From: a virus | Taxonomy: Duplodnaviria > Caudoviricetes | Direction: 5' to 3' (one strand) | Length of the DNA stretch: 64,000 nt | IMG/VR virus record: IMGVR_UViG_3300010998_000021 | Location: 32,001 to 96,000 of that record | In this document: positions 1-17,500 of the stretch, one piece after another | Position numbering within the stretch: position 1 is the stretch's first letter | Layout of the letters: each line of letters starts with the position of its first letter | Translations under genes and position numbers: made by a program | Notes under the pieces: model-generated | Databases searched by the model: none | What the model was told of the DNA's origin: nothing | The model's input: only the letters and a program-made list of their open reading frames with translations

Positions 1-3000
1 TAATTCATAGCATGTAAACCAAGAATAGCTTTTCCATTATCGTTGATTGCGCCATTATCTTCAAATATTACACTATCTTCAAATAAGTCAATTAGGAACT
101 CCGCTTCTTCACGTATATCAGAGATTGAATTTTGTAGATAATCGAATTTATCCCATTTGATTTCTCTTACTTTATTAGCATATTCTTGAGCCTTCTTGAT
201 AGCTTCTTGTTCTGCTTCTACGGCATCATTGATTCTTTCAGTCATTTCGTACCATGCTTCTGAACCACGCCTAATTTCGCCAGTACCTACTGCTTTTGTT
301 AATTGCTTTTGAAGGTCTTTTGCTAATTGTGAAGCATTTTTAGCATTGCTTTCCGCTATACTTTTTAGCTTTGAATAATAAACGCTACTTGTTTTTAACC
401 CCTTTGCTTCTGCAATGTCGAGATAATTATTATATTCTTTTGATAAATGTTCTGACAGAGACAATTTATTTTTGTATTCATCATAGATACTATTGAATAC
501 TTTTACATATTCTTTAGAAATGCTATTTGAAACTTTAATAATATCTTCGTTTAAGTCATTTATCTCATCCTCGACTTCTTGAATATCCTTTAATAATTTA
601 TAGTATTCTTCAGAACCTTTTGCTACAATGCCTTTTGTTGTTCCGCTTGCAAGTTTATCTGTAAGTTTCGCAAGTTCACTTTTCCGTTTTGATCTTTGGT
701 CTGAAAGATTATTTATTAAAGCAAGATAAGATTTGATATTTGCATTTGACGCATCTCTGCTGAGTGACATTTGTACATAATCACTCGCAAAATCTTCTCT
801 TCTTGTTATTAATGATTTTACTTTGTCAGCGGTTTGTTCTAAATTTTGAAGCGCATTTTCCCATGTTGTAATGATGTTCTTGAATTGACTTGAATACAAA
901 TCTTTTAATTCAAGTTTAAGATCACGAATTGCTTCTTGACACTTGACTGCGTTTTCATACCACTTTTTATATTGTTCTATGTTTTTACGTGTTTCATCGT
1001 CATATTCATTAATATCAATCGTTCCGGCTATGACTTTATCACGTAAATCTTGCGCGAGTGGTACGGAATTTGCTTGACCTATATATCTTTGATATGCTTG
1101 ACCTTGTAAATCTATTTCTTCTGTTGTTTTCTGAATTTGACGTACAAGATTATCATTACGAGTAGACCATTTTGCGAAAGTGTCTTTTGATGCTTTATCG
1201 AGTGTTTTTATTTCTTCCTCGACACGCTTCAATTTAATTTCTATCCAGTCAATGTAATCAGCTTTAGAATCTTTAGCTTTAGAAGAAGATGATGATGAAT
1301 TTCCACCTCCACCACCGCCTGAACTTCCACCGCCAGAGCCTCCAGAACCTCCAGAGCCACCGCCACTATTTGAACTTCCTCCAGACGATGAAGAACCACC
1401 AGAGCCAAGTCTAAAAGCTGTACCTTCAGCTAATGCTCGTCCTCTGCGATTGCCGTGTGTTATTTTCCCTTTTTCAAATATCTGTTTTGTTTGTTCCGCA
1501 TTGAAGATTATATCGTCCTTCTTATACGCGAACATTTCTGCACCAGTATCGCCAATAGTAAAGAATTTGCCATCCCTTACAACTAACTCGCGTCCAAGTT
1601 CACCACCAAGCGCAATACCGCTTGATTTAGTTCCCCAATCACCTCTTGCATACGCTGTACCTCTTGCATGTGCCGTTCCGTCAACAGCAGGAGGTGAACC
1701 AACTGTAACAATATGATATGTAACAGTTCTACTAATATTAGGATATGACGGTGGAGAAGGCGCATTGATGTGATAGTTTACCGCCGGATTTTGGTCTGGA
1801 TAAACTGGTGCTGCTGGTGCATTAATTCCATACGCTACTTGCGGAGATTGATCCTCGTATTGTGGTGCTTCTGGTGCATCTACATTTACACTGACATTTA
1901 TAGCTTGACCGCTTAATCCACTAATCGCGCCACTTGCAGCGGAAGTATCGGCATTAACAGTTGCAGTAACGGATTGACCTTCTAAAGAACTTAATGCGCC
2001 ATCTGCACCAGATGTATCAACATTCATATCAACATCTACTTGTTGACCTTGAAGTGATTCTGCTGCGCCTTCTGCCTGTGACGTATCAACATTCATGGAG
2101 ACATCTATTTGTTGATTTGACAGAGAACTTATTTCGCCTTCTGCTTGTGATGCATCTGCGTTAAGTGTTGCTTCAATCTCTTGCCCTGATAATGATCCTA
2201 TTGAATCTTCTACGGTTGCTGTGTTTACATTAGCATCTAATTCAATAGCATCGCCTTCTGGTGCTTCAATTTCAGATGCTTGAATTTTTCCACCTTCGAT
2301 AGTTGCTTCTTCGCCACTAAGACCATCTGTATCCAATTCATTTGCTTTGACTTTAGCTTCTATTTCAAGTTCAGATGAACCAGATAATTCTTGCATGTCG
2401 GATTGGAATTGAGCGAGCATATCGGGGTCTAATGCAGCATTCTTTAGTGAAGCAGTAGACATTGGTTGTATACCGCTTTCTTCTGCTAATTGCTCTTGTG
2501 CGTTTTTAGAAGATTCTTTTTGAATATTTGAAACTTCTTCAGATGATTTTTGTGCGCCCTCTACATGACCTTCTTCAGCACCTTTTGAAACAGCGTCTTT
2601 AACTTCGTTCTGCAAAGCAGTAGTGTCTTGTTGATTGAGTGTATCAATTACCGCTTGTTGTGCTTGGATAAGTTGTTCTTGTGCTTGTTGCCTTGCGCCT
2701 TCGGAAGTCGCATTAGCTAAATTTTGTTTAAATTGATCGACTGCTCCGAGTTGGTCTTTTAAAGTTACTGGTATTTCAACGCCTTCAGAAGTCAATCCTT
2801 GCATTTCCATTGATTTCTGAATGTAAGAACCTTGTTGTGCAATTAACTGCGCATTTGTTTCTCTCGTTCCGACAGAACCATTTCCGTTACTTCCTTCACC
2901 TTCACGCTGTCTTTGCAACTGATCCATTTGGTTCTGAATTTCAGCCAAATCATACTCGAACTTAATATGAACTACTTGTTCTTCAGTAAGCCCTGATAAA

Positions 3001-5115
3001 TCTTCTTCAAAAGAACTATATTCTTGGTCGAAACCTTCTATGATGTCTTTTACTCTATCTTTGCCTTTTCCGCTTTCCATATCATCGTAAACGGATTTAA
3101 GACCAGCGAGTGAGTCAGAAAACTCGTTAAGCATATCGCCTGACTTTTCAACACCATCAAATTCATAACCATATGCTTCAAGTGCGCTTAATACTGTTTC
3201 GACAGCACCAACACTAACTCCTAATTTATCTGCTGCTTCTGCTGTGGAATTAAATTGTGATTCTATATCCCACAATCCTTTATCGTCTGATTTGTTTACG
3301 TTAAATAATCCGGCATCTGCGAAATCGTCTACTGCATTCATCATAGACTGCGTTTCATCTTCACCAAACCATCTTTCAGCTTTTGCTAATCCTTGTTCAA
3401 ACGCCTCTTGATAAACATCGGCAGCATAGCCTCCGGCTTCTTTTGCTTCTTTAGCTTGTTTCTTTAAATTCTTAGGACTTAGGAACTGCGCGATAGATTG
3501 GAAATCGTCTGTTCCTGTTTTTCCTTCTTCGAGAAGTTCTTTTCCTTTCTTTACGGCTGATTGAATTGTAGACCAACCAGCGTCTTGGTCTGCGGATTTA
3601 GACGCTTCTTCTACGTCCTCGACAGATACTCTAAAACTATCAAGTTTATTTGTAGCACCATCGATTTCTTCTGAGGCATCTTTAAAGTAATCTCTTAATT
3701 GTTTATAATTACTTATGCCTAAGTCATCCATAGTCAAACCGACTTCGCCTAAAGCCTGTTTTAGATTCTTACCCTCTTTGACGGAATCTCGCAAATAATC
3801 TTTAATTGCCCCTTTTCCTTTGCCATCAAAAAAGTTTTCAAGATTATCTAATGCTTTTTCAGCAGGGGTCATGTCAATTTGTCTGAATCCTTTTGCAATA
3901 TCATTTACATCTTCAATGTATTTCTTTGCGTAATCAGAATCAGCACCATATTTCAACATGGTATCAGCTTGGTCTTGAATGATGTCAAGATAACCAGCCG
4001 TTTCAGCGGTAGCTTGTGAAATCTTAGAGTTTAAATCTTCCCTTTGTTTAATTTCTTGATCTGTTAAATTACCTGATTTCTTTGCTAATTTTTCATCTAA
4101 ACGACTTGATTCTTCTTTTAACGAATTGAGACTTTCAAGAGATTTTCTGGCAAGGTCGATGTTTGTTGTACCACCTTCTTCCCAAAGGTCTTTTTCATCT
4201 TTTCCAGTGTATCTTCCGTTTTCATCATAAACAGCTTTTTGGCTTGTAATATAATCCCAAACAGAAGCAATACTGCCGAACACGCCTTCGCCGTGTTGTC
4301 CTCTAATATGCTCCCAATAAGACTTTTCCGCTTTTGAAGCCTGTTCTGTATCTACTAAAGCGGTTTTCTTTTTCGATTCAGCAATCTTTTCTTGAATTTT
4401 AATTTGATTCTCAAGTTCTGCACTTGCCTCTGATAATCTTGAAAGTTCTGCTTCATCCACAAAGTTTAGAGTTGTATCACTCGCTTCAACTTTATTTATT
4501 ATATCATCAACAGTATCAGCACCTTCTACTTCGATATTGTATTTAAGTGCTATACCTTTTGCTTGCTCAAAGTTTTCACCTTGTTTGCCTTGAAGAGATT
4601 CAAGTTTAGACTGTGCATCTTCGTATTCTTGAACCGAAACTTCTGCTTGATCTTGCGCTCTTGTCCAACCAGAATTAAGATAGTCAAATCCTTTATAAGC
4701 ACCAAAAGCAACTGCTGCTGCTATTAGCGGAGCAGCCATTGTAGCCATACTTGCTAAACCGCTACCAAACGCTCCTATCCATGTCGCACCATCTTTAAAA
4801 GCAGAAACCACGCCCATAATGCCCTTGGCAAGCGTACCACCAACAAGTAAAGTTCCGACTAAACCTATCTTGTCTGTTATTGCATCAAATACTCCAAGTA
4901 TACCAGTGAGTCCATCTAAGACTGCACCCATGTCACTACGTTGGAATAGATTTTGCCAAATGCCTGTACCTGTTTCTTTAAGAGCATTTAGTTTGTATGA
5001 TATTGAATTTGTTATGATTTCCATTTCTGCGTCTGCTGCGCCAGCAGAAGTGGACATCTTTTTTATTGCTTCTTCGGCTTGTGAAAAATTGGAAATTACG
5101 GCAGCACCAATTTGT
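1..5115 (-). CDS. Tape measure protein, exon 4 (runs off the window start)
   Basis: Begins (A)QIGAAVISNFSQAEEAIKK and is in the same frame at the window edge (..AILGLHAMN). Coiled-coil, Gly/Ser linker at ~1280-1410 and a GTAHARG..ELGRELVVR motif typical of large siphophage TMPs. Absent from the ORF track, consistent with no stop codon inside the window. Confidence 0.9.
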
Positions 5116-6716
5116 CATTACATTCAGAAAGGTCATAACTCTTTCCAGTTTAATCTAAAATTTACTATGCTGTATTGATATAAAAACCATTTTTATAATC
5201 TTCTTCGAATCTTTCCCATTGTTCTTGTGTATTATTATATCTTCCATATATACTATGAAATAAATCATGTATGTCTTTTCTTATACATACACCTAATGGG
5301 TACTTATTATGTTCATCAATAAATGCTGATGTTATCTCAGCTAATTCTTTTTGCGTGTAATCATTAAAATCTTTAATAATATAATTAGAACTATTAAAAA
5401 AATCTGAAACTATATGGTTGAAACTATATAGATGATGAATATGAAATTTTTTTGATCCTGTAAGCACACACTGATAATCACAATTACGCATAGAATCTGT
5501 TTTCCATGTTTGTAATTGACCTCTAAGGTATTTGCTAATATCCGAATATTTCAAATTATCTTTGTCAACCCTCATTAATCCTAATCTATGTCTACGTTCA
5601 GATATTGATAACTTCGGTTTCCTTATTAAATTAGATAATTCATCATCAGACATATTCTCCCAATTATTCAGAAGTAAATTATCTTGCTCTTCATTCCAAT
5701 ATGTTTGGTTGTAAAAGAACGAAAACAGATTCAAAATACGTGCGTGACTTATAATAGCATTTCTACTTCTTGCCGGAATTAGGTTACATACTTCATCTAT
5801 CGGCTTAGTTGGATAATGTATTTTTAATAGTTTATTTTCTTCTTCACTCCAATCATCATCTGTTGAATATCCAAAATATCTAAATGCTTTTGTCTGTATC
5901 GCATCCTTTGAATATTTATAGCCATAATGAGATTCAAGTTCATCAAGTGTGTAATTAAAATAATTATGTTTTAGAAATTCTAATTCAGATTCATTCCAGA
6001 AGAAATACTCTGCTGTTATTCCCAATTTATGCGCCTGTGAAATAATTGATTGTTTCGTTGAATTAGGAAATCTTTTCATAATAGCATCCCAATTACCAAT
6101 AGGATATTCCCTCTTTATAAATTCTATATCTTCATCTGAATAATGATTTTTTGAAAATTCATATACTCCCAATCGTTTTAACTTATTTATAATACTTGAT
6201 GAATTTCGTTTATACTTTTCTGCCAACTTATATGGTTTCATTCCAGATTTATAATCTTCAATTATCATTTCTAATTCTTCTTTCGTAAATTGTCTTGCCA
6301 TGCTTCTCCTATGCATAGCTTTTAGATTAAACATCCTATACTTTCATATAGGTTTTGACTATTTCTTCACCCTCGCCGTTATGTGTTAGGGGCATACCTT
6401 TTCCATTTAAGAGGTTTTCACTCACGCCTAAATTTGCGCCGTACTTCTATTGATATGACTATTCAGGATTTCCACCTTTATTTGATTGTCATATCCCTTA
6501 TGGGGAATAGTCGATGAACATTTACCCTCGACTTAATTAACATATGGTCTATGTATGACGTTAGGGTACTTTGCTACATGAACATCCATTGTTGCATCCT
6601 TGCGTTGTCAAACCTTCATAACGTGCTTTCGCCGTTATTGTGGTGCAAGGCTTTAGGAATTACCTGTAATTAAATATGTTCTTTGCATGTATTTCTACAT
6701 GTTAGGGCAACTTTCT
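5116..6716 (-). mobile_element. Group I intron 3 of tape measure gene (encodes HNH endonuclease)
   Basis: Removal restores GKTRA-QIGAA. P1 hairpin AGGGC/GCCCT, R element CATCGACTA, S element AAGAAATAGTC, terminal G at 5116. Confidence 0.88.
5165..6301 (-). CDS. Intron-encoded HNH endonuclease with tandem W-x-E-x-E helical repeats
   Basis: AGGAG RBS before MARQF; repeats such as WNESELEFLK and WSEEENKLLK; C-terminal CVLTG..HIHH..GVCIRKDIHDLFH. Confidence 0.75.
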   Translation of the reverse strand: MARQFTKEELEMIIEDYKSGMKPYKLAEKYKRNSSSIINKLKRLGVYEFSKNHYSDEDIEFIKREYPIGNWDAIMKRFPNSTKQSIISQAHKLGITAEYFFWNESELEFLKHNYFNYTLDELESHYGYKYSKDAIQTKAFRYFGYSTDDDWSEEENKLLKIHYPTKPIDEVCNLIPARSRNAIISHARILNLFSFFYNQTYWNEEQDNLLLNNWENMSDDELSNLIRKPKLSISERRHRLGLMRVDKDNLKYSDISKYLRGQLQTWKTDSMRNCDYQCVLTGSKKFHIHHLYSFNHIVSDFFNSSNYIIKDFNDYTQKELAEITSAFIDEHNKYPLGVCIRKDIHDLFHSIYGRYNNTQEQWERFEEDYKNGFYINTA

Positions 6717-6950
6717 GCCCTCGTCTTGCCGAATAACTCATCGAGAAGTTGGGCTTGGTTTTTATCCGATAAATCATCCCAAACTGCCGAAATTTCCTTC
6801 AGAACTTGATAGGTAGATTTGTATGTATCCTCATCTTCCATGATCGAAACTTTCCCACCTGTCAACTCGTAAACATCACCTTTAATATTCACAAGATTGT
6901 CATCAAGTTCCTCGGTTTCCTCATTCATGCCTCGTATACGCATCGAGATT
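6717..6950 (-). CDS. Tape measure protein, exon 3 (234 nt)
   Basis: ISMRIRGMNEETEE...LFGKTRA, a TP901-type TMP core segment in frame with exons 2 and 4 after splicing. Confidence 0.88.
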
Positions 6951-8381
6951 CTTTATATTTATGTTAGTCGCAAGCTAACACGCATTGTTTGTTTTCTCCT
7001 TCAGTTCATTTATTTTAGATAATAAAAAATATTCCATATTATCTCTTTCCCAATACGGAATTTCGATAATTGGAATATTGTTTTCTTTACAATAATTAAG
7101 TTTGATTCTATCTCTAATCTGTATTATTTCAAGCTGTTGTTCAGCCCATTCTTTTCCTTTTCCCGAAAAATTAATAGGCATATAATGTTGTTCGCCTTGA
7201 TATTCAAATAAAGCGTTCAACTCATTAACATAAGCATCAAACTTCAGAGGATATTTGTATCTGCAATCATCATAAGAATATTGTCTTTCTACTGTATAAC
7301 CGAATGAATTAAGTAATTCTAATAATTTCCTTTCACCTTTTGATTGATTACAACTTGGACAAGATGAATCACCGCTTAATATGTGACAAACAGGTGAATC
7401 CCATTCTGTGTCATCAATCAAACACTTACATTTAATGTAATTGTGATAACCAGTATATTTTCCTATTACTTTTATATTCGGATTTTTATTTTGTATTCTT
7501 CTGACAATATCTTCTTCATTCGCCATCTCAGCTAAGTTTGCTTTCTTCCTTCCACATTTGGGGCAACCGCCTCCGTACAATATTACAGAAGGTCTTGCTT
7601 CCCATTCGTTGTCGCAAACCTTACACCGACATTTTACTTTATCAAACCATTTTTTATATTCAGATAAAACTTCAATATCTGGATTTGCGATTCTAACACG
7701 ATCACGAAAAACATCTTTTAACTTTCCACCATTACAATATTGGCATACATGATTATATCTCTTAAAGTTATAGACTGTACTTTCTTGTAAACCAAAATCT
7801 CTATGTTTATTGCAAACAAACTGAATAAATCTTTCACGCTTGTTATTTTTTATTTTTGATTCAACACCAATATATTCAACATCGTGTTTATCGCATAATT
7901 CTCTTAATTTATTTTCATCATATATCAATAACAATATTAAACAAAACAATGCCTCATACCTTCGTATGAGAATAGACTATATTTCAACCACACTCAAAGA
8001 GTAGCAGTAATACCTTTTCCATTTAAGGGGTTTTCACCCACGCCATTTGCGATTGCGCCGTACTTCTAATGATTTGGATATTCAGGATTCCACCTTTATT
8101 CTTATTCCAAATCCCTATAAAGGGAATAGTCGTTGAGCGTTTACCCTCGCCTTATCTATTCTTTTGGTAAGAATTACGTTAGGGTACTTCGTTGCTGAAC
8201 TGTGATTTTCTTCAAGTAGAAGAGTAGCACTTAGGTTTTTAGCCTTATGCTATCCTTATGTTGTTTCTGCTTTCGCACCATCATAACGTGCTTTCGCCGT
8301 TATTGTGGTATAAGGCTTTACACTTTACCAGCAATTAAATATTTACTTTATGCACATTTCTGTACATACGCACAATATCCT
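6951..8381 (-). mobile_element. Group I intron 2 of tape measure gene (encodes endonuclease)
   Basis: Removal restores GNGLRT-ISMRIRG. P1 CGCAC/GTGCG, P element AATTGCTGG, R CAACGACTA, S AAATATAGTC, terminal G at 6951; core closely similar to intron 3. Confidence 0.88.
6975..7949 (-). CDS. Intron-encoded Zn-ribbon repeat + Vsr-like PD-(D/E)XK endonuclease (start uncertain)
   Basis: CxxC/GCPxC repeats, SKGE, FDAY..FEYQGEQHY, IEIPYW. Confidence 0.8.
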   Translation of the reverse strand: MFCLILLLIYDENKLRELCDKHDVEYIGVESKIKNNKRERFIQFVCNKHRDFGLQESTVYNFKRYNHVCQYCNGGKLKDVFRDRVRIANPDIEVLSEYKKWFDKVKCRCKVCDNEWEARPSVILYGGGCPKCGRKKANLAEMANEEDIVRRIQNKNPNIKVIGKYTGYHNYIKCKCLIDDTEWDSPVCHILSGDSSCPSCNQSKGERKLLELLNSFGYTVERQYSYDDCRYKYPLKFDAYVNELNALFEYQGEQHYMPINFSGKGKEWAEQQLEIIQIRDRIKLNYCKENNIPIIEIPYWERDNMEYFLLSKINELKEKTNNAC

Positions 8382-8731
8382 GTGCGGAGTCCATTACCTA
8401 CTTTGGACGCATCTTGCACAATTTCAGTACCAGCAGTAATTAAAGCAATAGTTTCATCAAGTGAGTTATTCGCTACTGCCATAGCACTTGATGAATTTTT
8501 AAGAGCAGTCATAACGTCTGCATTTGACAATGCAAAACTGTTACCGACTTTATTAACTTTAGACATTACACCGTCAAGAACATCATCAGCTTCAATTCCG
8601 AATGCCTTCATCGTACTGACAAGACTTGAAGTGCTTTCTTCAACACTCATCCCCGGACTTATCGCTGCAAACTGCGATGATAATTTGCTCATCGTTTTTG
8701 CATCTGACAGGTTATATCCAAGACGAGACCA
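8382..8731 (-). CDS. Tape measure protein, exon 2
   Basis: WSRLGYNLSDAKTMSKLS...VGNGLR(T), TP901-family TMP core. Confidence 0.9.
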
Positions 8732-9937
8732 CCTTTTGTTACTCTCTTCAAAATAGAAGAGGAGTAGGTCATTTCTGCCTACTTCTGCAATTTCATTTTT
8801 AGATTATATTTGCAGAGCAGAGTACATCTTCACCATGCGCAAAATGCGTTTAGGTGTTCAGCGTGTAAACATACATTACTGCATGTAAAACTTACTCGTT
8901 ACGGGTTCAAAACATTTAATATCAATTTTTCTATATTTTCTATTGTTTCTCCATATTGTATTTCTAATAATACTATATCATTATCTTTGCAGTACCTTCT
9001 CTTAATAGAATCGTTTCTTTTTCTATCCTCGAATCCTTGCACACCGCCAAAATAATCGACTACTTGATAATGCTGTTTTCCTTGATATTCAATACATACA
9101 TTGTTTTCAGGCAAATAAAAATCGAACGGCAATCGCCGTTCGTGTTTGCAATCATCAAATCTATATTGATTTATAAAAGAAATGTTATGGTTTTGCAGTA
9201 TTTCTTGAATGATATATTCTCCTTTACTTCTTCCCATACATCCACACGATGTAGTATGTCCAGTAGTCAAAGAAGAACCATCCACAATGCAAATGTTTCC
9301 ACAATCACATTCACATGAGTATGTTCTTCTATCGTATTGGCTTCGATCTAATTCTTTTATAGCTGTTAATAATCCAAATTTTTTACCTATTATATTGTTC
9401 TTTAATGAATTTATGTAATCTAATTTATTGCATCCGCATGATTGTTTATGCCCTCGTTTTAAATTTGAAGACTCACAATAGGTTATATTACCACAATCAC
9501 ACTTGCATTCCCATATAACTGAACCGTTTGCACTTCTATTACCTGAATCTTTAATAACTGTTAGTTTCCCAAACCGTTTCCCAATTATATCTGTCTGTGC
9601 ATGATTACGATTATATCTTGATTCTTTTTCATAACATCCACATGATTTAGATTTTCCTTTTATTACGTTGTAGAAATTCATTTCTTTCTTATTTCCACAT
9701 TGACATTTACAAAATGCTTTTCTTTGTTTTCCAATTTTATAAATATCAAGAATTGTTAATAGGTTGTATTCGTTTCCAATATATTCATCATAATTTTTCT
9801 TTTTTATCAAATTACCACATCCAATGATATGATATTAAATGTTTTGTCTTGCCCTCGGAATTGTCCTTCTCAGGATTTTTCCCGATAAAAGCTGAATGTA
9901 AACTTATATGTTTCCATATAAGAGGACTTATAGGTTA
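8732..9937 (-). mobile_element. Group I intron 1 of tape measure gene (encodes endonuclease)
   Basis: Removal restores GAAD-WSRLG. Canonical P1 GGAU/GUCC with U.G pair, P3 TTCAGC/GCTGAA, P7 GAGTA/TACTC, terminal G at 8732. Confidence 0.9.
8899..9810 (-). CDS. Intron-encoded endonuclease (FGxLT..CxCDCG repeats + Vsr-like nuclease)
   Basis: Three LT..CxCxCG..SCGC repeats; FDFYLP..IEYQGKQHY. Confidence 0.82.
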   Translation of the reverse strand: MIKKKNYDEYIGNEYNLLTILDIYKIGKQRKAFCKCQCGNKKEMNFYNVIKGKSKSCGCYEKESRYNRNHAQTDIIGKRFGKLTVIKDSGNRSANGSVIWECKCDCGNITYCESSNLKRGHKQSCGCNKLDYINSLKNNIIGKKFGLLTAIKELDRSQYDRRTYSCECDCGNICIVDGSSLTTGHTTSCGCMGRSKGEYIIQEILQNHNISFINQYRFDDCKHERRLPFDFYLPENNVCIEYQGKQHYQVVDYFGGVQGFEDRKRNDSIKRRYCKDNDIVLLEIQYGETIENIEKLILNVLNP

Positions 9938-10954
9938 ATCCGCAGCACCTTGGATAATCTGCTGTGTTGTTGTTCCGTATTCTTTTGCAATGTCATTAGC
10001 TTCTTTGTAAAAACTATTTAATTGTTTTGGTGTCGCAGTAGAAGTCTTTTGTAAATCAACTAATGCAGTATCAAGATCGGCAACAGTTTTAATGCCATTT
10101 TTCAAAGTATTTATCATTCGATAAATACTCATGTAAGACGCAACAAATTTACCAACCGTTGAAAACGCAGAACCAAAAGATTCAGAAAACGTCTTCCCTA
10201 TATTTCCAGTTGCTTTCGCATCAGATTGTAAATATCTAAATTCATCGCGTAGTTGTTTTATGGCATCAACATCTTTATTAGCAATCGCTGTTTTTAATCT
10301 TGCTTGTAAATCATCTAATTGATCCCCATAGGCAGCAACAGCTTTTGAATTATTTTTAGCCCAAGTTGTCATTTGATTTCCAAATGTTTTAGCTTGTAAT
10401 TCATTAAACTGTTTTACTTTTCCGGCTGCATTAGATACACCGCTCGACATGTCTTTAAAAGATTGTGAAAAAGTCTTTGTTGTATTTTGAACTTTTCCAG
10501 TCTCTTTATCAAACTCTCTTACTATTTGAACGGCTCTACCAAGTTGGTCAGTACCAGTAATTTTCATACTGATATTTCCATTTGATTTTTGAGTAGTTGA
10601 AATTTTGCTAATTGATAATGTAAGTTTGTCTAATTCATTTGTTACTTGATGTATAGAATTTTTATTAAATCCTGCACCCATTAACATATTTTGAATGTTG
10701 CCTATACCACCATTTCTTAAATCAATCTTATTTAAACTACTCGAAAATGCGTTCGCAAAACTCTGACCAGCACTTGCCCCTTGGTTTGAAAATTGGTTAG
10801 CTAATGATGCTAACTGTTGCCCTAATTGATTAGACTGAAAATCAACTTTTATTTGTATTGGCTTAGAAGTCATATTAGAAACCAAACTATTAAACTTGGC
10901 TTCAGCTTCAGAAGCATCTAATATGGCTTTTATCGTAGCCTGAAAATCAGCCAT
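9938..10954 (-). CDS. Tape measure protein, exon 1
   Basis: AGGAGG RBS; ends LDTALVDLQK..QIIQGAAD, the start of the TMP core. Confidence 0.9.
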
Positions 10955-10971
10955 CACCTCACCTCCTTATA

Positions 10972-12030
10972 TTAATCAAGTTCGGTTAATGATGCCTGTT
11001 TCACATCCTTAATCCCGTCTGCTCCGAAATACTTGTCGAGTTTCTTATCAGTAGAACTATCGACATATACACTAACCATTTCGCTTGACTCCCAACCTAT
11101 GATGTCTTGAATAACGGTTTCAGGTAAGTTATACTCGGCTAACCTTGTGGTAAAGAAATGACGTAAACTATGCCAATAAAAAGGTTTGTTCATCATTTTT
11201 GTGAATTTTTGCGCCCAATAATCTATCGTTTCAATCTTAATAGGCTTATTAACATATTTTCCGTTTTCTAATCTTGGAAATAAATAATCACTTCTTATCT
11301 TTAATCGTTCACGTTCAGCTAACCATAAATCAAGATATGGTTGAAAAGGTTTCGCAAGGGTGTATACGTCAAGAAGTTTACCGCGAGTGCCACGACCTTT
11401 AGTTACCATTTTCTCAGGTGTTTTATATAAAGCACCCTCACATATTAAATTTTTCTTACTGAAATAACTAACTTTGAATCTTGGGATTTCCGCTTTACGT
11501 CTGCCGTTATTCATAACCAATGAGATCATACATGCTTTCATGTATTCGCCATCAAATACAAGTTGGTCAAGCAGTTTTTGAAGTTCGGTTAATGTGAATA
11601 CAGATTTTTCTCTTACTGCCGTGTTAGCAGGAGATTGAATTTTGTTTACGATTGGTTTGTATCCCTCGTATTCATCGTCTAAAATATCTTCTATATAGTT
11701 GCTAAGTGACGAGATGGTTGCTTTAAAAGTTCTCACACGTTTCGGAGACCATCCCCACTCGTTAATTGCATGATTTTGAAATTTGCTAAATTCCCTCTTC
11801 TTCAAATCGACAAAGAATTTATTTTTGTTATAATCTAAATTCCACACCCAAAATATATGTAAATTATGTTCATACTGATATATAGTTGTTTTGGCTCTGT
11901 CAATAGAAGCAAGATATTCCAAATAATCTTTTTCTAATTCTAAATTGTCTGGATTGACTTGTGACAGTTTTTCGGGAGAAGTAATGTCGTTGTAAACTGT
12001 ACTTCTTCCTTTGCCTTTTTTTACCGACAT
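10972..12030 (-). CDS. Tyrosine recombinase embedded in the tail module
   Basis: Catalytic residues RRKAE, K, HSLRH, GW and Y. Confidence 0.88.
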   Translation of the reverse strand: MSVKKGKGRSTVYNDITSPEKLSQVNPDNLELEKDYLEYLASIDRAKTTIYQYEHNLHIFWVWNLDYNKNKFFVDLKKREFSKFQNHAINEWGWSPKRVRTFKATISSLSNYIEDILDDEYEGYKPIVNKIQSPANTAVREKSVFTLTELQKLLDQLVFDGEYMKACMISLVMNNGRRKAEIPRFKVSYFSKKNLICEGALYKTPEKMVTKGRGTRGKLLDVYTLAKPFQPYLDLWLAERERLKIRSDYLFPRLENGKYVNKPIKIETIDYWAQKFTKMMNKPFYWHSLRHFFTTRLAEYNLPETVIQDIIGWESSEMVSVYVDSSTDKKLDKYFGADGIKDVKQASLTELD

Positions 12031-12041
12031 TATTTACCTCC

Positions 12042-12464
12042 TTAATGAAAATAGCTTGCAAGGATACTCTGTGCATCATGTATTGTTTTTTGGTTTGCTC
12101 TATTCCAAAACCCCGGTCTTCCTTTGACATGTGCGAAATGGTACTCGGCAGCGTTCAATGCTTGTAATCCACTAAAATAACTTGCAAATCCTCTTGATGT
12201 AAATGCCGGATTTGGAACGGCATAGCTTGGAATTTGTAAATACATTTTAACAGAATAAGAATTTCCACCACCTTGTACTCCAGATGTCCTTGGTGAACTT
12301 CCGAGTTGACCTGTACGTGAATATATTGTTGGACTTCCACCAGAATAGAATCCTTGCGTTTCTTGTTGCATGTTAGACATTGCTTTTGCGTTTATTTGAC
12401 TCATAGCAGATTGCATTCGCTGTCTTATCTGTTCTAAAGCAGCGTCAAGTCCTCCACCAGCCAT
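12042..12464 (-). CDS. Putative tail completion protein
   Basis: Y.RTG.L and RPGFW motifs resemble HK97 gp10-like proteins; position in the tail module. Confidence 0.5.
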   Translation of the reverse strand: MAGGGLDAALEQIRQRMQSAMSQINAKAMSNMQQETQGFYSGGSPTIYSRTGQLGSSPRTSGVQGGGNSYSVKMYLQIPSYAVPNPAFTSRGFASYFSGLQALNAAEYHFAHVKGRPGFWNRANQKTIHDAQSILASYFH

Positions 12465-12480
12465 AAGATCACCTCACGAA

Positions 12481-13059
12481 TTATGTCTGGGGTGGAAGTG
12501 CAATAGTAGCATTTCCCTCATTTAATAAAGCAGTATTAGCTTTAAATCTATCAGAATTACCATATGCTTCTACAATAGCTTCTTCTGACAATTTACCATC
12601 TTTAATCTGCTGTGCAATTTCCGCAAACTTCCTAATATCACTTTCAGAGAAAGTTTCTCTAAAGGATTTCAATACAGCATCAATGGACGCACTAATAGCG
12701 GTTGCATAAGAATTGGCATCATTCTTTTTAAATTCAACAATGTCCATAGCTTTATTATATGCGTTCCCAAATGTTAAACTTGGAACAATATTATTAACAC
12801 AACCAACTTCATCCATAAAATGATTCATAAAATCTTCATTGTCATATAGATGTTGCACTTCTAAAATATTGTCAATAGGATGCGTTTTGATCGTATCTGA
12901 ATCTTCAAGTTCAACGCAGTTGTTAAAATATGCGCATAATGCAAACGCCTCACCAAATTGAGGTGCATATTCAAAAGTATCTTTATCGAAGTATTCATCT
13001 ACAATATCGTGAATAACTTGAAAATAATCGTTCAGATTTAACTTATTATTATATTTCAT
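12481..13059 (-). CDS. Hypothetical protein, possible tail assembly chaperone
   Basis: Acidic 192-aa ORF upstream of the TMP. Confidence 0.45.
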   Translation of the reverse strand: MKYNNKLNLNDYFQVIHDIVDEYFDKDTFEYAPQFGEAFALCAYFNNCVELEDSDTIKTHPIDNILEVQHLYDNEDFMNHFMDEVGCVNNIVPSLTFGNAYNKAMDIVEFKKNDANSYATAISASIDAVLKSFRETFSESDIRKFAEIAQQIKDGKLSEEAIVEAYGNSDRFKANTALLNEGNATIALPPQT

Positions 13060-13065
13060 TCTGAT

Positions 13066-13599
13066 TTACCCCTTTATATCGTTATGTAAAGCTGTCTGCT
13101 CTAAAAAAGAATTTATGTCATAACGATAATGTGTTTTTAATAATGTTTGACTAATAGTAATGTAATTAACATCGTAAATAGACAGGTCTTTAAAATTAAA
13201 ACTTTTCTTCGGTATCACGTTTTGTAATTTCAAAAACTCTTTAATAGGAAGGAATATGGTTGTTTCAAGTTCACGGAACTCAATTACAAATCCACACACA
13301 CATTCTCCGATTTTTTCAAAATTATCTAAACCTGTAATTTGATGATAATGGATTTCACCGTTCTCATCTTTTGTGCGCTCAAAAGATATAGATTTACCTT
13401 TTACTGTTTTTAATTCAAGCGCATAGAGTGTTAGTGTTTTAGGATTCCATAACAAAAAGTCGTATGGATTTTTATTACTAAATCTTAAATTTGAACTTCT
13501 AAAAAATGACTGCGCTGCATCTGGTAAACGAATTACACCTAAATAATCAGGTGCGCTTTTCGTAAAATCACGTTCAAATTGTTTGCCGACACTTGCCAT
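13066..13599 (-). CDS. recU: RecU-like Holliday junction resolvase
   Basis: GKQFE, PYDF, ALELKT and IHYHQI motifs of the RecU nuclease family. Confidence 0.75.
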   Translation of the reverse strand: MASVGKQFERDFTKSAPDYLGVIRLPDAAQSFFRSSNLRFSNKNPYDFLLWNPKTLTLYALELKTVKGKSISFERTKDENGEIHYHQITGLDNFEKIGECVCGFVIEFRELETTIFLPIKEFLKLQNVIPKKSFNFKDLSIYDVNYITISQTLLKTHYRYDINSFLEQTALHNDIKG

Positions 13600-13601
13600 A
13601 T

Positions 13602-13838
13602 TTATTTGTTATGCGGATAAGTGTTGAGCCATTTTTGGTATATGTACGCAGTTTCATTTTTTAAAAACCAAAATGTGATTTTGTTCGGGCATCTTTCTTT
13701 CTCCCAAACAAATCTCGGCTGGCAACCATGTTTAATATAAAATATTGCTTGTTTTAGATTGTCGATTGGAATTAGGTTTTCTCGTCCATAACAATCAATA
13801 GCTTCTTCTAAAGATTCAAAATTTATTGTTGTTCGCAT
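13602..13838 (-). CDS. Small conserved phage protein (DUF5659-like)
   Basis: GAGGT RBS; QAIFYIKHG..P..FWF..YQKW pattern. Confidence 0.55.
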   Translation of the reverse strand: MRTTINFESLEEAIDCYGRENLIPIDNLKQAIFYIKHGCQPRFVWEKERCPNKITFWFLKNETAYIYQKWLNTYPHNK

Positions 13839-13860
13839 TCGTTTTCTTACCTCTACTCTA

Positions 13861-13905
13861 AAAAAAGAAAAGGGTAACACGATGCGATTGCAAAGTATTA
13901 CCCTT
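13861..13905 (-). terminator. Intrinsic terminator
   Basis: AAGGGTAATAC..GTGTTACCCTT hairpin followed by a T tract. Confidence 0.6.
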
Positions 13906-13927
13906 TATTTAAACTACAATACAATCC

Positions 13928-14188
13928 TTACTCGACAATAGTTTCATGCTTCTTCTTGATTGTTTTCTTATTTTTATCATTATTGTTTTGTTCTGTATAT
14001 ACAGATTCTTTGACATCAGAATTTATTTCTTCTTTATCATCTGTGATAGAGTATTTACCATTCTCAAATTTGACATTCAAAAATTTAATATTCTCCTGAC
14101 CAACAGAAGGAAACTGAATGTCAATGCCATTAAATCTGACAACAGTAACAGCATCGTTATTTTCAATGACTGGACATTCTTTAATCAT
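13928..14188 (-). CDS. Hypothetical protein
   Basis: 86-aa ORF with an AAGGAG RBS, overlapping the upstream stop. Confidence 0.6.
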   Translation of the reverse strand: MIKECPVIENNDAVTVVRFNGIDIQFPSVGQENIKFLNVKFENGKYSITDDKEEINSDVKESVYTEQNNNDKNKKTIKKKHETIVE

Positions 14189-15426
14189 GCTACATTCTCC
14201 TTGATATTGAAAAAATCACCATGACATTTCTCTGGCGATTTGCGTTTCTCTTCGTTAAATTTTTCAAATGTTATATATTCAAATTCATAACCACGATATT
14301 TATGATTTTTAGAAATCCCAACTCTTAAATTTTTCAATGTGCAAATATTTTTATCTAAGAATAAATGATTGAATACGTCATTTGATTTATGATAATAATT
14401 ATCGTTTGTTTTGCAATAAATTGGTCTATCTTGAGTAAAATCATATTTACACCAACCGAATTTCATTCCTTGCTTAACAGCTCTCTTTATAACATCATCA
14501 TAAACTTTAAAATGCTTTGCAATTTGTTTCTCTGTTAATAATGGATTATCATCATGATATTTTGCTACTTGATAATAAAAATTAGATGTAGCAAATTCAT
14601 CACATTTCCCCCAATCAATATCAAATTCATTAATACCCACATCCGATAGTAGTCTTGACGAGATTATTGAATTTTTAATATAATCACAATCTGATATTGA
14701 ACAATCAATTTGATAGTAATGGTTTATGCCATTTTCAATTGCAAGAGTTTGTTTCGTATAATCATTTTTAATATTTTCTTCGAGAGTGGTTCTGAATGTT
14801 TCTTTCCCTTTATAATGTTGCGAACCATGCATTTCAATTATGAAAGTTTCTTCATTATAAACAAAATAATAATCATATCGTTTATAACCACTCCATTCAA
14901 ATTTCATTTCTGGATTAAAATCAATATTTAATTGAGATAATAATTCGAACATGAATTTATTCGGATAACTTTGGTTGTCATTACATATACATGCTATTGA
15001 ATGATGCGAAGCGATTTGCATAGGTGATTTCATTTGAATGTTTTTACAATAAGGACATTGTATCAGTGTCTTTTCTTTGCAATACTTCGTGTGGGTATAA
15101 ACATATTCTTTGTCAATTATATATTTGACCATCCAAGGGGCAGTAGTAGAAATATCATTAAAACCCCTCAAAACTTTTTTTGCTCCAGAACAACATACAT
15201 TACATCCAGAGGGATTCTTTTTAGATGAAAGTTTACTTTCTTCAATCCAATCTTCATTATTACAATTCAAACAACAATATTTATACCATTTTTTAACGCT
15301 TTTTGTAGCGGTTTGACTCTTAGACCTGTTTACATTATTTGACCTTTGTTCTCTGCCTATAATGATAATATTTCTATTATGCGTATTTATTATATCACCA
15401 ATACTGTATTTAAAATCGCCCATCAT
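14185..15426 (-). CDS. Free-standing Zn-ribbon + Vsr-like endonuclease
   Basis: GCNVC..GFNDI, SYPN, YDYY..IIEMHGSQHY. Confidence 0.75.
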   Translation of the reverse strand: MMGDFKYSIGDIINTHNRNIIIIGREQRSNNVNRSKSQTATKSVKKWYKYCCLNCNNEDWIEESKLSSKKNPSGCNVCCSGAKKVLRGFNDISTTAPWMVKYIIDKEYVYTHTKYCKEKTLIQCPYCKNIQMKSPMQIASHHSIACICNDNQSYPNKFMFELLSQLNIDFNPEMKFEWSGYKRYDYYFVYNEETFIIEMHGSQHYKGKETFRTTLEENIKNDYTKQTLAIENGINHYYQIDCSISDCDYIKNSIISSRLLSDVGINEFDIDWGKCDEFATSNFYYQVAKYHDDNPLLTEKQIAKHFKVYDDVIKRAVKQGMKFGWCKYDFTQDRPIYCKTNDNYYHKSNDVFNHLFLDKNICTLKNLRVGISKNHKYRGYEFEYITFEKFNEEKRKSPEKCHGDFFNIKENVA

Positions 15427-15506
15427 AAAACTACCCCGAATTATCTTGTATTATTTATATAATATCAAATCGAAGAATATATAACAAGTATTATCGTGTA
15501 TAATTT

Positions 15507-15538
15507 AAAAATATAGGGCGAGTTTTCACTCGCCCATA
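15507..15538 (-). terminator. Intrinsic terminator after the major tail gene
   Basis: GGGCGAGT-GAAA-ACTCGCCC followed by a T-rich tract. Confidence 0.75.
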
Positions 15539-15544
15539 CAAATA

Positions 15545-15612
15545 TTACTCTACGTCAGTTGTGTCCTCGATCATATCAAGAACATTACCATTTTTATCTT
15601 CAAGTAAATCAA
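15545..15612 (-). CDS. Major tail protein, exon 2
   Basis: (F)DLLEDKNGNVLDMIEDTTDVE*, in frame after splicing. Confidence 0.85.
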
Positions 15613-15983
15613 CCATTGTGTTAAGGAATATTCGCTATATATTCCCAAGCGTATAATACGCTTCTCGTACTTTCATACGAAGTGCAGACTATATCTTCAT
15701 CCTTGCGGATGCCTACCACTTCCACCATCAATAGCTTATGGTGTACTCCTTACGGATAGTCGTTGAACTTTACTCTATTCGAGTCTTAGCTGCTGGTTGC
15801 CCATTATTCCAATACTTAGGATTTAACCTTATATCATCTATATATTTCTTTCAGCTTTCGCAACATTCACGCTTAGACTTATTTCATTCTTACGTTGTAG
15901 TATATATAGCTTTAGGGTTTTTCAGCAATTCAATAGGTTATCTTATCACGCACATTTCTGTACGCGCACACTATCATTATTTA
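15613..15983 (-). mobile_element. ORF-less group I intron (371 nt) in the major tail gene
   Basis: P1 CACAU/GUGUG with U.G pair, P GAATTGCTG, Q AACCAGCAGC, R CAACGACTA, S AAGATATAGTC, terminal G at 15613. Confidence 0.92.
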
Positions 15984-16650
15984 ATGTGATTGTCACAGAA
16001 GCAGGATCGCCTTCAGAAGAGAAGGAAAGCTCGAAATTTCTCTGAATAGACGCTTTGTAAGCAGTCATAATGAAAGGTGTAAGGGAATCATCCTCACCCT
16101 TATCCAGAGTAGACATTGTAATGTAATAATCCTTCGGAACTTTCTTATTATTGAAGGAAACCTTCTTAACATTCTCAGTTCTCTCTACGATGTAACCAAC
16201 TTCATACTCGGTATCGACCGCAATATCATTGTTGGTAGTAGCAGTGAACTTGTTAGAAGCATAAGTTCCTGCAATCTGTGTATTGCCAAACTCGCCAGAA
16301 GCATACACGAACACTGTACCTGCCTTTGCGCCAATAATATCAAGTTCGCCAGCAGTAGTACATTTAATAGTTTTCTTCACGGCATAAGCAGCGGTATTAT
16401 CAATAGTACCATCAGAGAACAGCGCATAAGCCTTGAATGGCATAACCTGTGCTTCGATAGTCATAGTACCCTCAATTGGGTTATGGAACGCGATTGCACG
16501 CACACCTTTCTTCATAGCATATACACTATCGCCAGAAAGACCAGCAGTAGTGGTATTAGCTGTGTCGAAGAATAAAAACGGAGCCATCGTTTTCAGTACA
16601 CGAATATCTACATCAGCGCACTGTCTATTAGCTTTATTAATATCAGGCAT
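15984..16650 (-). CDS. Major tail (tube) protein, exon 1; spliced product 244 aa
   Basis: Strong RBS, highly-expressed codon bias, LSFSSEGDPASVTIT(F)D motif; position. Confidence 0.8.
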
Positions 16651-16672
16651 AATAAATTCCTCCTTAAAGACA

Positions 16673-17500
16673 TTAAATGTCTATTTTATCATTTTGTTTA
16701 TTGAATAAATTTTTATACCAAAGCGAGGGATCAAATTTATTATCTTCATCGCCCCAAACCGCCACACGTACAGTATTTAAATAATGTACATCATCGTTTT
16801 GTGCTTTACCGAATTGGTCATATAATTGAAATAGCGTGGCATCCCAAATATTGACAATATTCAATCCTGCGCTTTTCATCGCAGTGGAAGAAATAATGTT
16901 AGGCAAAGTTAAATTTATATAATCTTTTAAAGCCTTTTCTTTTTTTTGTTTTTCTCTCGCCTTTAGCATCCTCTCATATAACCTTTTAGCCTTTGCGTTT
17001 TTGAATTTTGGCATTGGTTCGTCTAACGGATCATCGCTCTTTATACAAAGAATTTGCTGAATAATATCTATTACATCTGCAAATGTTTTCGGACTAATTC
17101 TTCCGACCATAATATTATCTATTTCAATTTCATATGGTGGTGTTTCATAATCATCTGTATCTAAAATAAAAAAAAGATTATCTTTAAAGATAACCCTCTC
17201 CATAAAAAAGAAATTAAATATTTCCAAATATGTATTTGCAATAGATTCTTCTAAAAGAATAATGTCATAAATAGAAATATCACTTTTTTGTTCATCTGAA
17301 AGCATATTCCAATATTCAGCACCTTTGTCACCACATAGAAGAGTATAATAATCTTTTGGTGTTAGTTTTAAATATACTTGATACATACCGAATTTAGGAT
17401 ATGTTAGTTTACCTATGTCACGCAAAGTAGGTTGTCTTAATGTTCCGATTGACAACGAAATCGGTTCTGGACATAACAATGTAAAATAATCTAATTTCAT
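16673..17500 (-). CDS. Virion morphogenesis protein (unknown)
   Basis: 275-aa ORF between the neck and tail tube genes. Confidence 0.6.
   Translation of the reverse strand: MKLDYFTLLCPEPISLSIGTLRQPTLRDIGKLTYPKFGMYQVYLKLTPKDYYTLLCGDKGAEYWNMLSDEQKSDISIYDIILLEESIANTYLEIFNFFFMERVIFKDNLFFILDTDDYETPPYEIEIDNIMVGRISPKTFADVIDIIQQILCIKSDDPLDEPMPKFKNAKAKRLYERMLKAREKQKKEKALKDYINLTLPNIISSTAMKSAGLNIVNIWDATLFQLYDQFGKAQNDDVHYLNTVRVAVWGDEDNKFDPSLWYKNLFNKQNDKIDI

Follow-up and report, generated by a model that had tools for sequence, protein, structure and literature searches.

Group I introns of a phage tape-measure lineage with C-G in place of U.G at the predicted 5' splice site

Introduction

The U.G pair is treated as the mark of a group I 5' splice site, and this limits the aim of engineered trans-splicing or circularising ribozymes. 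Among the nearest known counterparts are introns of the Bacillus cereus group prophages, in which IA2 and IA1 introns occupy several sites of the tape-measure gene and have been retargeted to new sites by changed P1 and guide sequences; the part of that account used here gives U as the base preceding virtually every group I intron, with no exception mentioned (Tourasse and Kolsto 2008, PMC2504315). A pyrimidine at position -1 is reported, in the portion of the source drawn on here, to be functional in an engineered Anabaena intron (PMC12355055). In this work we analyzed introns 2 and 3 of the tape-measure gene of a ruminant-gut phage (Duplodnaviria; Caudoviricetes), both of which have a C at this position. 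The gene lies in a stretch of 64,000 nucleotides (nt), positions 32,001 to 96,000 of the IMG/VR record IMGVR_UViG_3300010998_000021, hereafter called the window; the stretch is present in sequencing runs of 12 studies labelled as sheep, bovine, goat or gut metagenome.

An initial annotation of the window described the U.G pair as nearly invariant among group I introns. That rule has to be qualified, since the title of a paper published by Hur and Waring in 1995 (Nucleic Acids Res 23:4466) reportedly announces two natural group I introns with C.G for U.G and asks whether the selection is post-translational. C-G at this site is known as a rare case and is feasible mechanistically. The new element here is a large intron lineage of phages and prophages, with C-G in most members and U-A in some, together with a codon-phase rule explaining the state found. 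A literature search, covering few subscription journals and no supplements or figures, returned no account of the present lineage or of any phage intron that has C at -1.

Results

Splice junctions and P1 of the two introns

The tape-measure gene runs on the minus strand from 10957 down to beyond position 3 and is interrupted by three introns (Table 1). Introns 2 and 3 share one layout, with a structured 5' part (~430 or 390 nt) followed by an open reading frame (ORF) and a short 3' tail. Intron-less tape-measure homologues span both junctions without an indel, and because they align across them without a gap, the ligated sequences are fixed as ...CGCAC-AATCTC... (GLRT-ISMRIRG) and ...AGGGC-ACAAAT... 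(GKTRA-QIGAAV). The peptides at junction 2 read VGTALKT-VSMRLRG in Brevibacillus phage Sundance (L002), VGTTLKS-LSMYLRA in MT837120 (L003) and VGNGLRT-ISMRIRG in the window, and the alignment of homologues and window at junction 3 comprises GGKHQGNIVASIISNW, GGKRNANAVSAILNNF and FGKTRAQIGAAVISNF.

In both introns P1 is a perfect helix of 5 base pairs (bp; CGCAC with GUGCG, and AGGGC with GCCCU), directly followed by the P2 hairpin region. Where U.G is expected at the 5' splice site, the pairs are C8382:G8373 and C6717:G6708. The initial annotation had placed a C as the last exon base opposite the guide G in both introns, which was confirmed on the minus strand; equally correct was its remark that a shift by one nucleotide gives an A:U site with a terminal A in both. 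The two registers (C|A...G|A or CA|...GA|) yield the same product because intron and 3' exon both begin with A. The other three introns in the window carry a normal U.G, as had been stated: GGAU|...GUCC in intron 1, CACAU|...GUGUG in the tail-tube gene and GAU|UA...UAGUC in a head gene (by eye only). In P10 of window intron 2, five of six bases pair (by eye). Cleavage at +2 of the window introns, where a reversed G.U occurs, was also considered and rejected, as it needs a terminal A and the pair is not conserved in MT835469.

The cleavage-site pair across the intron family

Relatives were collected with one exact 27-position pattern taken from the conserved region between P7 and P3', which yielded 77 IMG/VR loci. 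A hidden Markov model (HMM) built from four copies, those of the window and of MT835469, identified 89 full-length introns in these loci and the window, 75 of them with non-identical 5' parts. The guide position was fixed 5 nt before the P2 region, and an exon strand was accepted at no fewer than 4/5 pairs including the anchor pair. Exon/guide complementarity of 5 bp at the fixed guide position was found in 73 of the 75 non-identical relatives; since it recurs across a wide variety of P1 sequences, the pairing exceeds what chance would give. The flanking exons resemble tape-measure sequence in every family row examined.

Among the 75 relatives the anchor pair is C-G in 45, U.G in 19 and U-A in 9, with no call for two (L037 and the L072 intron at 3760, the latter looking like U-A with 4/5 pairs by eye). 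Counted by cluster (49 clusters at 90% core identity or more, one with two types), the numbers are 29, 13 and 6, respectively, and two without a call. One cluster carries both GGC|...G (L084) and GGU|...A (L030 group), so that both sides of the pair have changed. Two assignments are less certain: L047 is misaligned and its U-A call is doubtful, while L052 is C-G, or U.G if its register is shifted by one. No change in J4/5 or J8/7 that consistently tracks the pair type was seen by eye in the family alignment.

A second set came from a scan of one genome per species, which gave 14 loci, mostly in gut Clostridia assemblies plus two cultured isolates. The 12 readable copies in these bacterial genome records, assigned by reading, comprise eight C-G, three U-A and one U.G. 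Both isolates, which form the L089/L091 pair of records, carry the intron in a prophage tape-measure gene, with U-A in Coprococcus ammoniilyticus H1_22 (GGU|...A) and C-G in Anaerovorax sp. IOR16 (GGC|...G). The initial annotation had suggested an intron lineage with altered splice-site recognition, perhaps aided by its extra domains or a protein. This reading is supported in part: the -1 pairs tabulated from homologues in both sets point to a trait of the lineage, while a changed recognition mechanism and a compensating role of the domains or of a protein are hypothetical.

Homologues of both window introns are present in MT835469 (L001), a 176-kb phage contig from human faeces. The homologue of intron 2 occupies the same site as in the window, with P1 formed by AAGAC and GUCUU and a perfect 6-bp P10 right after the terminal G. 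That of intron 3 (L001 6481-8567) lies 33 nt upstream of the window site, with P1 formed by CAGGC and GCCUG and again a perfect P10 (6/6); by eye, the P10 pairs in MT835469 begin exactly after the terminal G. The -1 base is C in all four copies, that is, the two window introns and their two homologues. Judged from the family counts, the C-G pair is a trait of the lineage and not two accidents.

Group I identity and fold

Introns 2 and 3 are group I introns with a canonical core. When searched alone, intron 3 matches RF00028 with 42.5 bits (E 1.2e-09) and intron 2 with 20.5 bits (E 0.0051), each alignment spanning the whole model, and the nhmmer family model scores them at 369 and 389 bits, respectively. 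Both Rfam alignments include the classical conserved stretches with both P7 strands (GACUA with UAGUC); they also contain a long insertion that separates P7 from the 3' strand of P3 (~105 nt in intron 3) and another in the P5 arm. The P3-P8 and P4-P6 domains and the P7 pseudoknot are present in both introns.

A structure was drawn by hand on intron 3 and its pairs were counted over 49 family representatives, one per cluster at 90% core identity. Across 18 helices, standard pairs occupy 94.3% of cells, versus 33-46% when the partners are offset by 1-3 columns, and changes on both sides were counted in 65 of 84 pairs; the observed values were reached by none of 500 shuffles. P7 is fully paired, its outer G-C being invariant in 49/49, and includes two covarying pairs. 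Extra helices between P7 and P3' (P7.1/P7.2 type) define subgroup IA, and this family has five covarying helices (12-16) that follow the 5' strand of P7 and precede the 3' strand of P3. The extended core-flanking domains that the initial annotation saw in both introns are real, and their extra helices covary across the 49 representatives. The identical block it reported in the two introns measures 28 nt (plus strand 6617-6644 and 8282-8309) and corresponds to helices 7-8 of the drawn structure, with changes on both sides in 5/6 and 2/2 pairs.

Register of the cut and rival readings

The 3' splice sites were sought among every in-frame candidate junction by comparing the ligated peptide, using ungapped blastp, with uninterrupted ORFs of other loci; the query's own locus was excluded, a long spanning match was required and base identity was not used. 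The test set included 58 introns with a clear upstream frame, 57 of which had a spanning match. With a margin of at least 10 bits, 24 of 29 introns end in G; four of the five exceptions had their 5' site set off the anchor and the fifth, L008, runs off its locus. At the same margin and with the 5' site fixed at the anchor, a terminal G occurs in 24/25, versus a background G frequency of 0.19. The procedure recovered the window introns at 1431 nt (intron 2) and 1601 nt (intron 3), with a terminal G at 6951 and 5116, respectively. In U.G members the wobble sits exactly at the anchor position. One of these, L072 (3169), has an intron that starts with G, so that its two registers can be distinguished: a cut after the anchor pair gives the conserved GGK and a shift by one base gives GGE, which fixes the splice geometry for the family. 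The outer G-C pair of P7 is presumably the guanosine pocket. Its invariance fits a normal pocket and, on this assignment, makes a terminal A unlikely.

In the family alignment (columns 8-10), the guide G is mostly preceded by UU. Given that A is almost always present at both intron +1 and 3' exon +1, the same two U's seem to serve first the P1 extension and then P10.

Three metatranscriptome runs, of bovine-gut or related origin, gave contigs of 311, 244 and 218 nt that are identical to parts of the intron 3 ribozyme core (6172-6698), and beyond this core almost nothing of the 7-kb stretch is matched by them, apart from some sequence in exon 4 (4610-4808). Such confinement to the intron 3 core could reflect stable excised intron RNA or carried-over DNA.

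Several observations weigh against a cut after the C. Over all 57 introns with a spanning match only 37 end in G, the 20 other picks being mostly of low margin, and 17 of the 75 introns were left out of the 3' test with an ambiguous or broken 5' exon frame. In 23 of 24 clear cases the intron and the 3' exon alike begin with A, which makes the sequence alone compatible with a shift by one base; in L019 intron 3 and L040 4519 both registers end in G and encode the same amino acid (Ala in L019, whose intron begins with U). For window intron 3 the P10 pairing is poor (only 1-2 pairs, by eye). Both introns score under the Rfam gathering cut-off (50 bits), because of their large insertions, and neither was found in the whole-window Rfam search; a permissive search of 4500-17000 (12.5 kb) listed no group I match either. 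No splice joint was found in the three metatranscriptome runs, whose contigs lie only within 6172-6698 and 4610-4808, a result compatible with splicing as much as with its absence. Finally, the 45 of 75 C-G introns are related sequences gathered with one exact 27-nt pattern and not independent events, and members without the motif are missed.

Placing both splice sites one base further, with an exon ending in A paired to U and an intron ending in A instead of G, would leave the ligated sequence unchanged for the two window introns as for 23 of the 24 clear family cases, and the +1 A does pair with a conserved U adjoining the guide G. Such a shift would nevertheless require a terminal A opposite a P7 pair that is an invariant G-C in 49/49 representatives and presumably forms the pocket, would swap a conserved Lys for Glu in the unambiguous U.G member L072 (3169), and would demand an exonic A at the end of each of several different insertion sites; we regard it as very improbable. 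A decay of the introns, which would no longer splice and would leave the tape-measure protein made in pieces or not at all, could account for the low Rfam scores and for the lack of spliced RNA in the three RNA runs. However, every core helix is intact and covarying, the exon frames join exactly and diverged phages (L001, L019) have retained this arrangement, while the stretch recurs in runs of 12 studies and is covered by the single DNA run mapped (X16), so that this explanation can hardly be credited.

It is also conceivable, though unlikely, that the C-G introns are poor ribozymes alone and depend on a helper for splicing in vivo, be it the protein encoded in the intron or a host factor docking P1. 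Replacing the wobble with G-C slows the reaction of the Tetrahymena ribozyme, both window introns encode proteins, and in both, large extra helices are present on P5 as well as between P7 and P3'. However, these peripheral helices are the same in U.G, C-G and U-A members, and L019, closely related to the window phage, has a 524-nt homologue of intron 3 (6445-6968) in which the C-G pair is retained and no long ORF was apparent by eye. The engineered Anabaena intron likewise accepts either pyrimidine at this position in the part of the report used here (PMC12355055). Taken together, we consider it probable, from sequence evidence, that the window introns splice after C8382 and C6717.

Codon phase and the choice of C

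Both window introns are phase-2 insertions, intron 2 in a Thr codon (AC|A) and intron 3 in an Ala codon (GC|A). With U at -1, Thr would become Ile and Ala would become Val, and C would be held at these sites because of this change in the encoded amino acid. The same pattern extends to the family: all 16 of 16 distinct phase-2 contexts are C:G (the misaligned L047 row excepted), the -1 base being the middle base of Ala GCN or Thr ACN. In phase-0 contexts, where -1 is the third codon base and mostly belongs to Gly GGY before Lys, there are eight U.G, five credible U-A and four C:G. The presence of C:G at such free third positions, along with the U-A cases, suggests little pressure on the lineage to restore the wobble. 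The likeliest account is that coding constraint keeps the C and that the lineage tolerates Watson-Crick pairs at the site.

Proposed mechanism

Both introns are best read as members of one lineage of mobile, subgroup-IA-type group I introns in tape-measure genes of gut Bacillota phages and prophages, each with its homing-endonuclease ORF in a loop that follows P9. Immediately before the P2 region, a 5-nt guide pairs with the last five exon bases, and the base opposite the first guide nucleotide would be the 5' splice site. External G would attack after the C in an otherwise ordinary splicing reaction; the terminal G (6951 or 5116) would then occupy the conserved P7 pocket while P10 aligns the exons. 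The lineage appears to accept G-C, G.U or A-U at the cleavage-site pair, and with several pair types accepted the wobble would not be the mark of the site here. More probably, what marks the site is the distance of the pair from the P1/P2 junction, which is constant and would act as a ruler. The comparisons above show the fold, the pairing in P1, the terminal G, the ligated junctions and the family statistics; cleavage after C, its efficiency and the ruler are what we infer from them.

A stronger form of this idea holds that the lineage gave up wobble recognition, so that any standard pair (G-C, A-U or G.U) located four pairs above the P1/P2 junction is cut, with the ruler instead of a wobble receptor choosing the site. 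We put this forward tentatively, as possible but doubtful. If it were true, the C:G to U:A double change in cores of at least 90% identity would reflect selection for pairing as such, and ribozymes of this lineage could be aimed at sites not ending in U.

Intron ORFs, mobility and other introns of the phage

The intron 2 ORF matches PHROG 559 HNH endonuclease (4.4e-52) and PHROG 9084 homing endonuclease (1.7e-23). For the intron 3 ORF there is, besides the matches in Table 1, a Pfam Myb-like match under its cut-off; its product is probably an HNH-type endonuclease with repeated helix-turn-helix-like units. The mobility of these introns is indicated at the sequence level by a predicted endonuclease ORF inside each intron and by occupancy that differs between related genomes. 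Sundance and MT837120 carry intron-less alleles, and the intron 3 homologue of MT835469, with its retargeted guide at a site 33 nt upstream, is on sequence comparison a clear case of an intron lineage moving to a nearby new site.

Intron 1 contains an ORF (9810-8899) with matches to PHROG 374 and 559 HNH endonucleases; searched alone with Rfam, this intron gave no match. The ORF-less tail-tube intron was the sole Rfam find at the gathering threshold in the whole window.

Table 1. Predicted features of the tape-measure gene and of other introns in the window (P, paired region; aa, amino acids)
Feature	Coordinates	Strand	Remarks
Intron 1 of tape-measure gene	9937..8732	-	by eye; phase 0; canonical U.G
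Exon 2	8382..8731	-	start 8731 read by eye from intron 1 3' end (AAAAGG|TGG); agrees with Sundance alignment
Exon 2, last 5 nt, CGCAC	8386-8382	-	exon strand of intron 2 P1; C8382 is the -1 base, middle of Thr ACA codon
Intron 2, group I, 1431 nt	8381..6951	-	RF00028, nhmmer, covariation and junction inference
Intron 2, 5' end	guide G 8373; guide strand GUGCG 8373-8369	-	CGCAC (8386-8382), then AGGATATT, then GTGCG
Intron 2, P10 strand GAUAUU	8379-8374	-	
Intron 2, P2 GAAA hairpin and core	from 8368; end near 7953	-	ribozyme core through P9
Intron 2 ORF, 324 aa, homing-endonuclease-like	6975..7949	-	Pfam CapR 4.7e-09; DUF4379 treble-clef 2.2e-06
Intron 2, 3' part	hairpin ~6985-6963; terminal G 6951	-	P9.1-type stem closing the ORF loop, then hairpin
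Intron 2, 3' end, ATAAAG	last G 6951	-	3' exon AATCTC from 6950
Exon 3, 234 nt, between introns 2 and 3	6717..6950	-	tblastn to Sundance, MT837120, MT835469
Exon 3, last 5 nt, AGGGC	6721-6717	-	exon strand of intron 3 P1; C6717 is the -1 base, middle of Ala GCA codon
Intron 3, group I, 1601 nt	6716..5116	-	RF00028, nhmmer, covariation and junction inference
Intron 3, 5' end	guide G 6708; guide strand GCCCU 6708-6704	-	AGGGC (6721-6717), then AGAAAGTT, then GCCCT
Intron 3, P2 GAAA hairpin and core	end near 6335	-	hairpin after guide; core through P9
Intron 3 ORF, 389 aa	5165..6334	-	PHROG 323 3.9e-22; PHROG 1891 HNH endonuclease 1.5e-08
Intron 3, 3' part	stem ~6330-6318 with ~5163-5151; hairpin ~5147-5126; terminal G 5116	-	13-bp stem closes the ORF loop
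Intron 3, 3' end, TAATG	last G 5116	-	3' exon ACAAAT from 5115
Exon 4	3..5115	-	starts ACAAAT; continues off window
28-nt block identical to 6617-6644	8282..8309	+	RNA strand: P5-extension helix with GAAA loop
Tail-tube gene intron, ORF-less	15613-15983	-	RF00028 71.8 bits

Discussion

Natural variants that have a common core but a different pair at the cleavage site allow the real contribution of the wobble to be measured. The lineage also shows how an intron can colonise codon positions at which U is forbidden. Members in cultured isolates, with C-G in Anaerovorax sp. IOR16 and U-A in Coprococcus ammoniilyticus H1_22, make bench tests possible, and the tail-tube intron, with its U.G and no ORF, offers a handy in-genome control for splicing assays. 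The value of these observations is tempered by the 1995 precedent and by splice sites that are read from sequence.

The introns described here resemble several known systems to different degrees. As in the two introns of Hur and Waring, going by the title of that paper, a natural C stands opposite the guide G where U.G is expected, and the question posed in the title is echoed by the window introns, in which the C occupies the middle position of a Thr or an Ala codon and is held by the coding sequence. The introns of Hur and Waring are said to be fungal mitochondrial and self-splicing; in contrast to those two isolated organellar cases, the present introns form a phage and prophage lineage with C-G as the majority state and U-A also present. 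In the Bacillus cereus tape-measure introns, as covered in the part of that study used here, retargeting has a parallel in the window and MT835469 introns, which differ by a site 33 nt upstream with a new guide; unlike the U rule stated there, the window introns follow C.

Comparison by blastn with named phages gave one real relative, MT835469, the others being short core matches. The latter include IA2 introns in the Twort-like staphylococcal phage lysin, Vibrio phage JA-1 and Bacillus phage AR9/PBS1, which are alike over 56-121 nt (73-85% identity) in the P7.2-to-P3' core and lie between split genes, adjoining HNH endonuclease genes. However, these matches cover only 2-4% of the query, and the ORF in those records is upstream of the matched part, not after P9. 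The tail-tube intron of the same phage shares the P1/P2 layout of introns 2 and 3, in that its guide G precedes a GAAA-capped P2 by four bases, and matches the family HMM in part (35 bits), but differs from them in its canonical U.G, its lack of an ORF and its much smaller peripheral domains.

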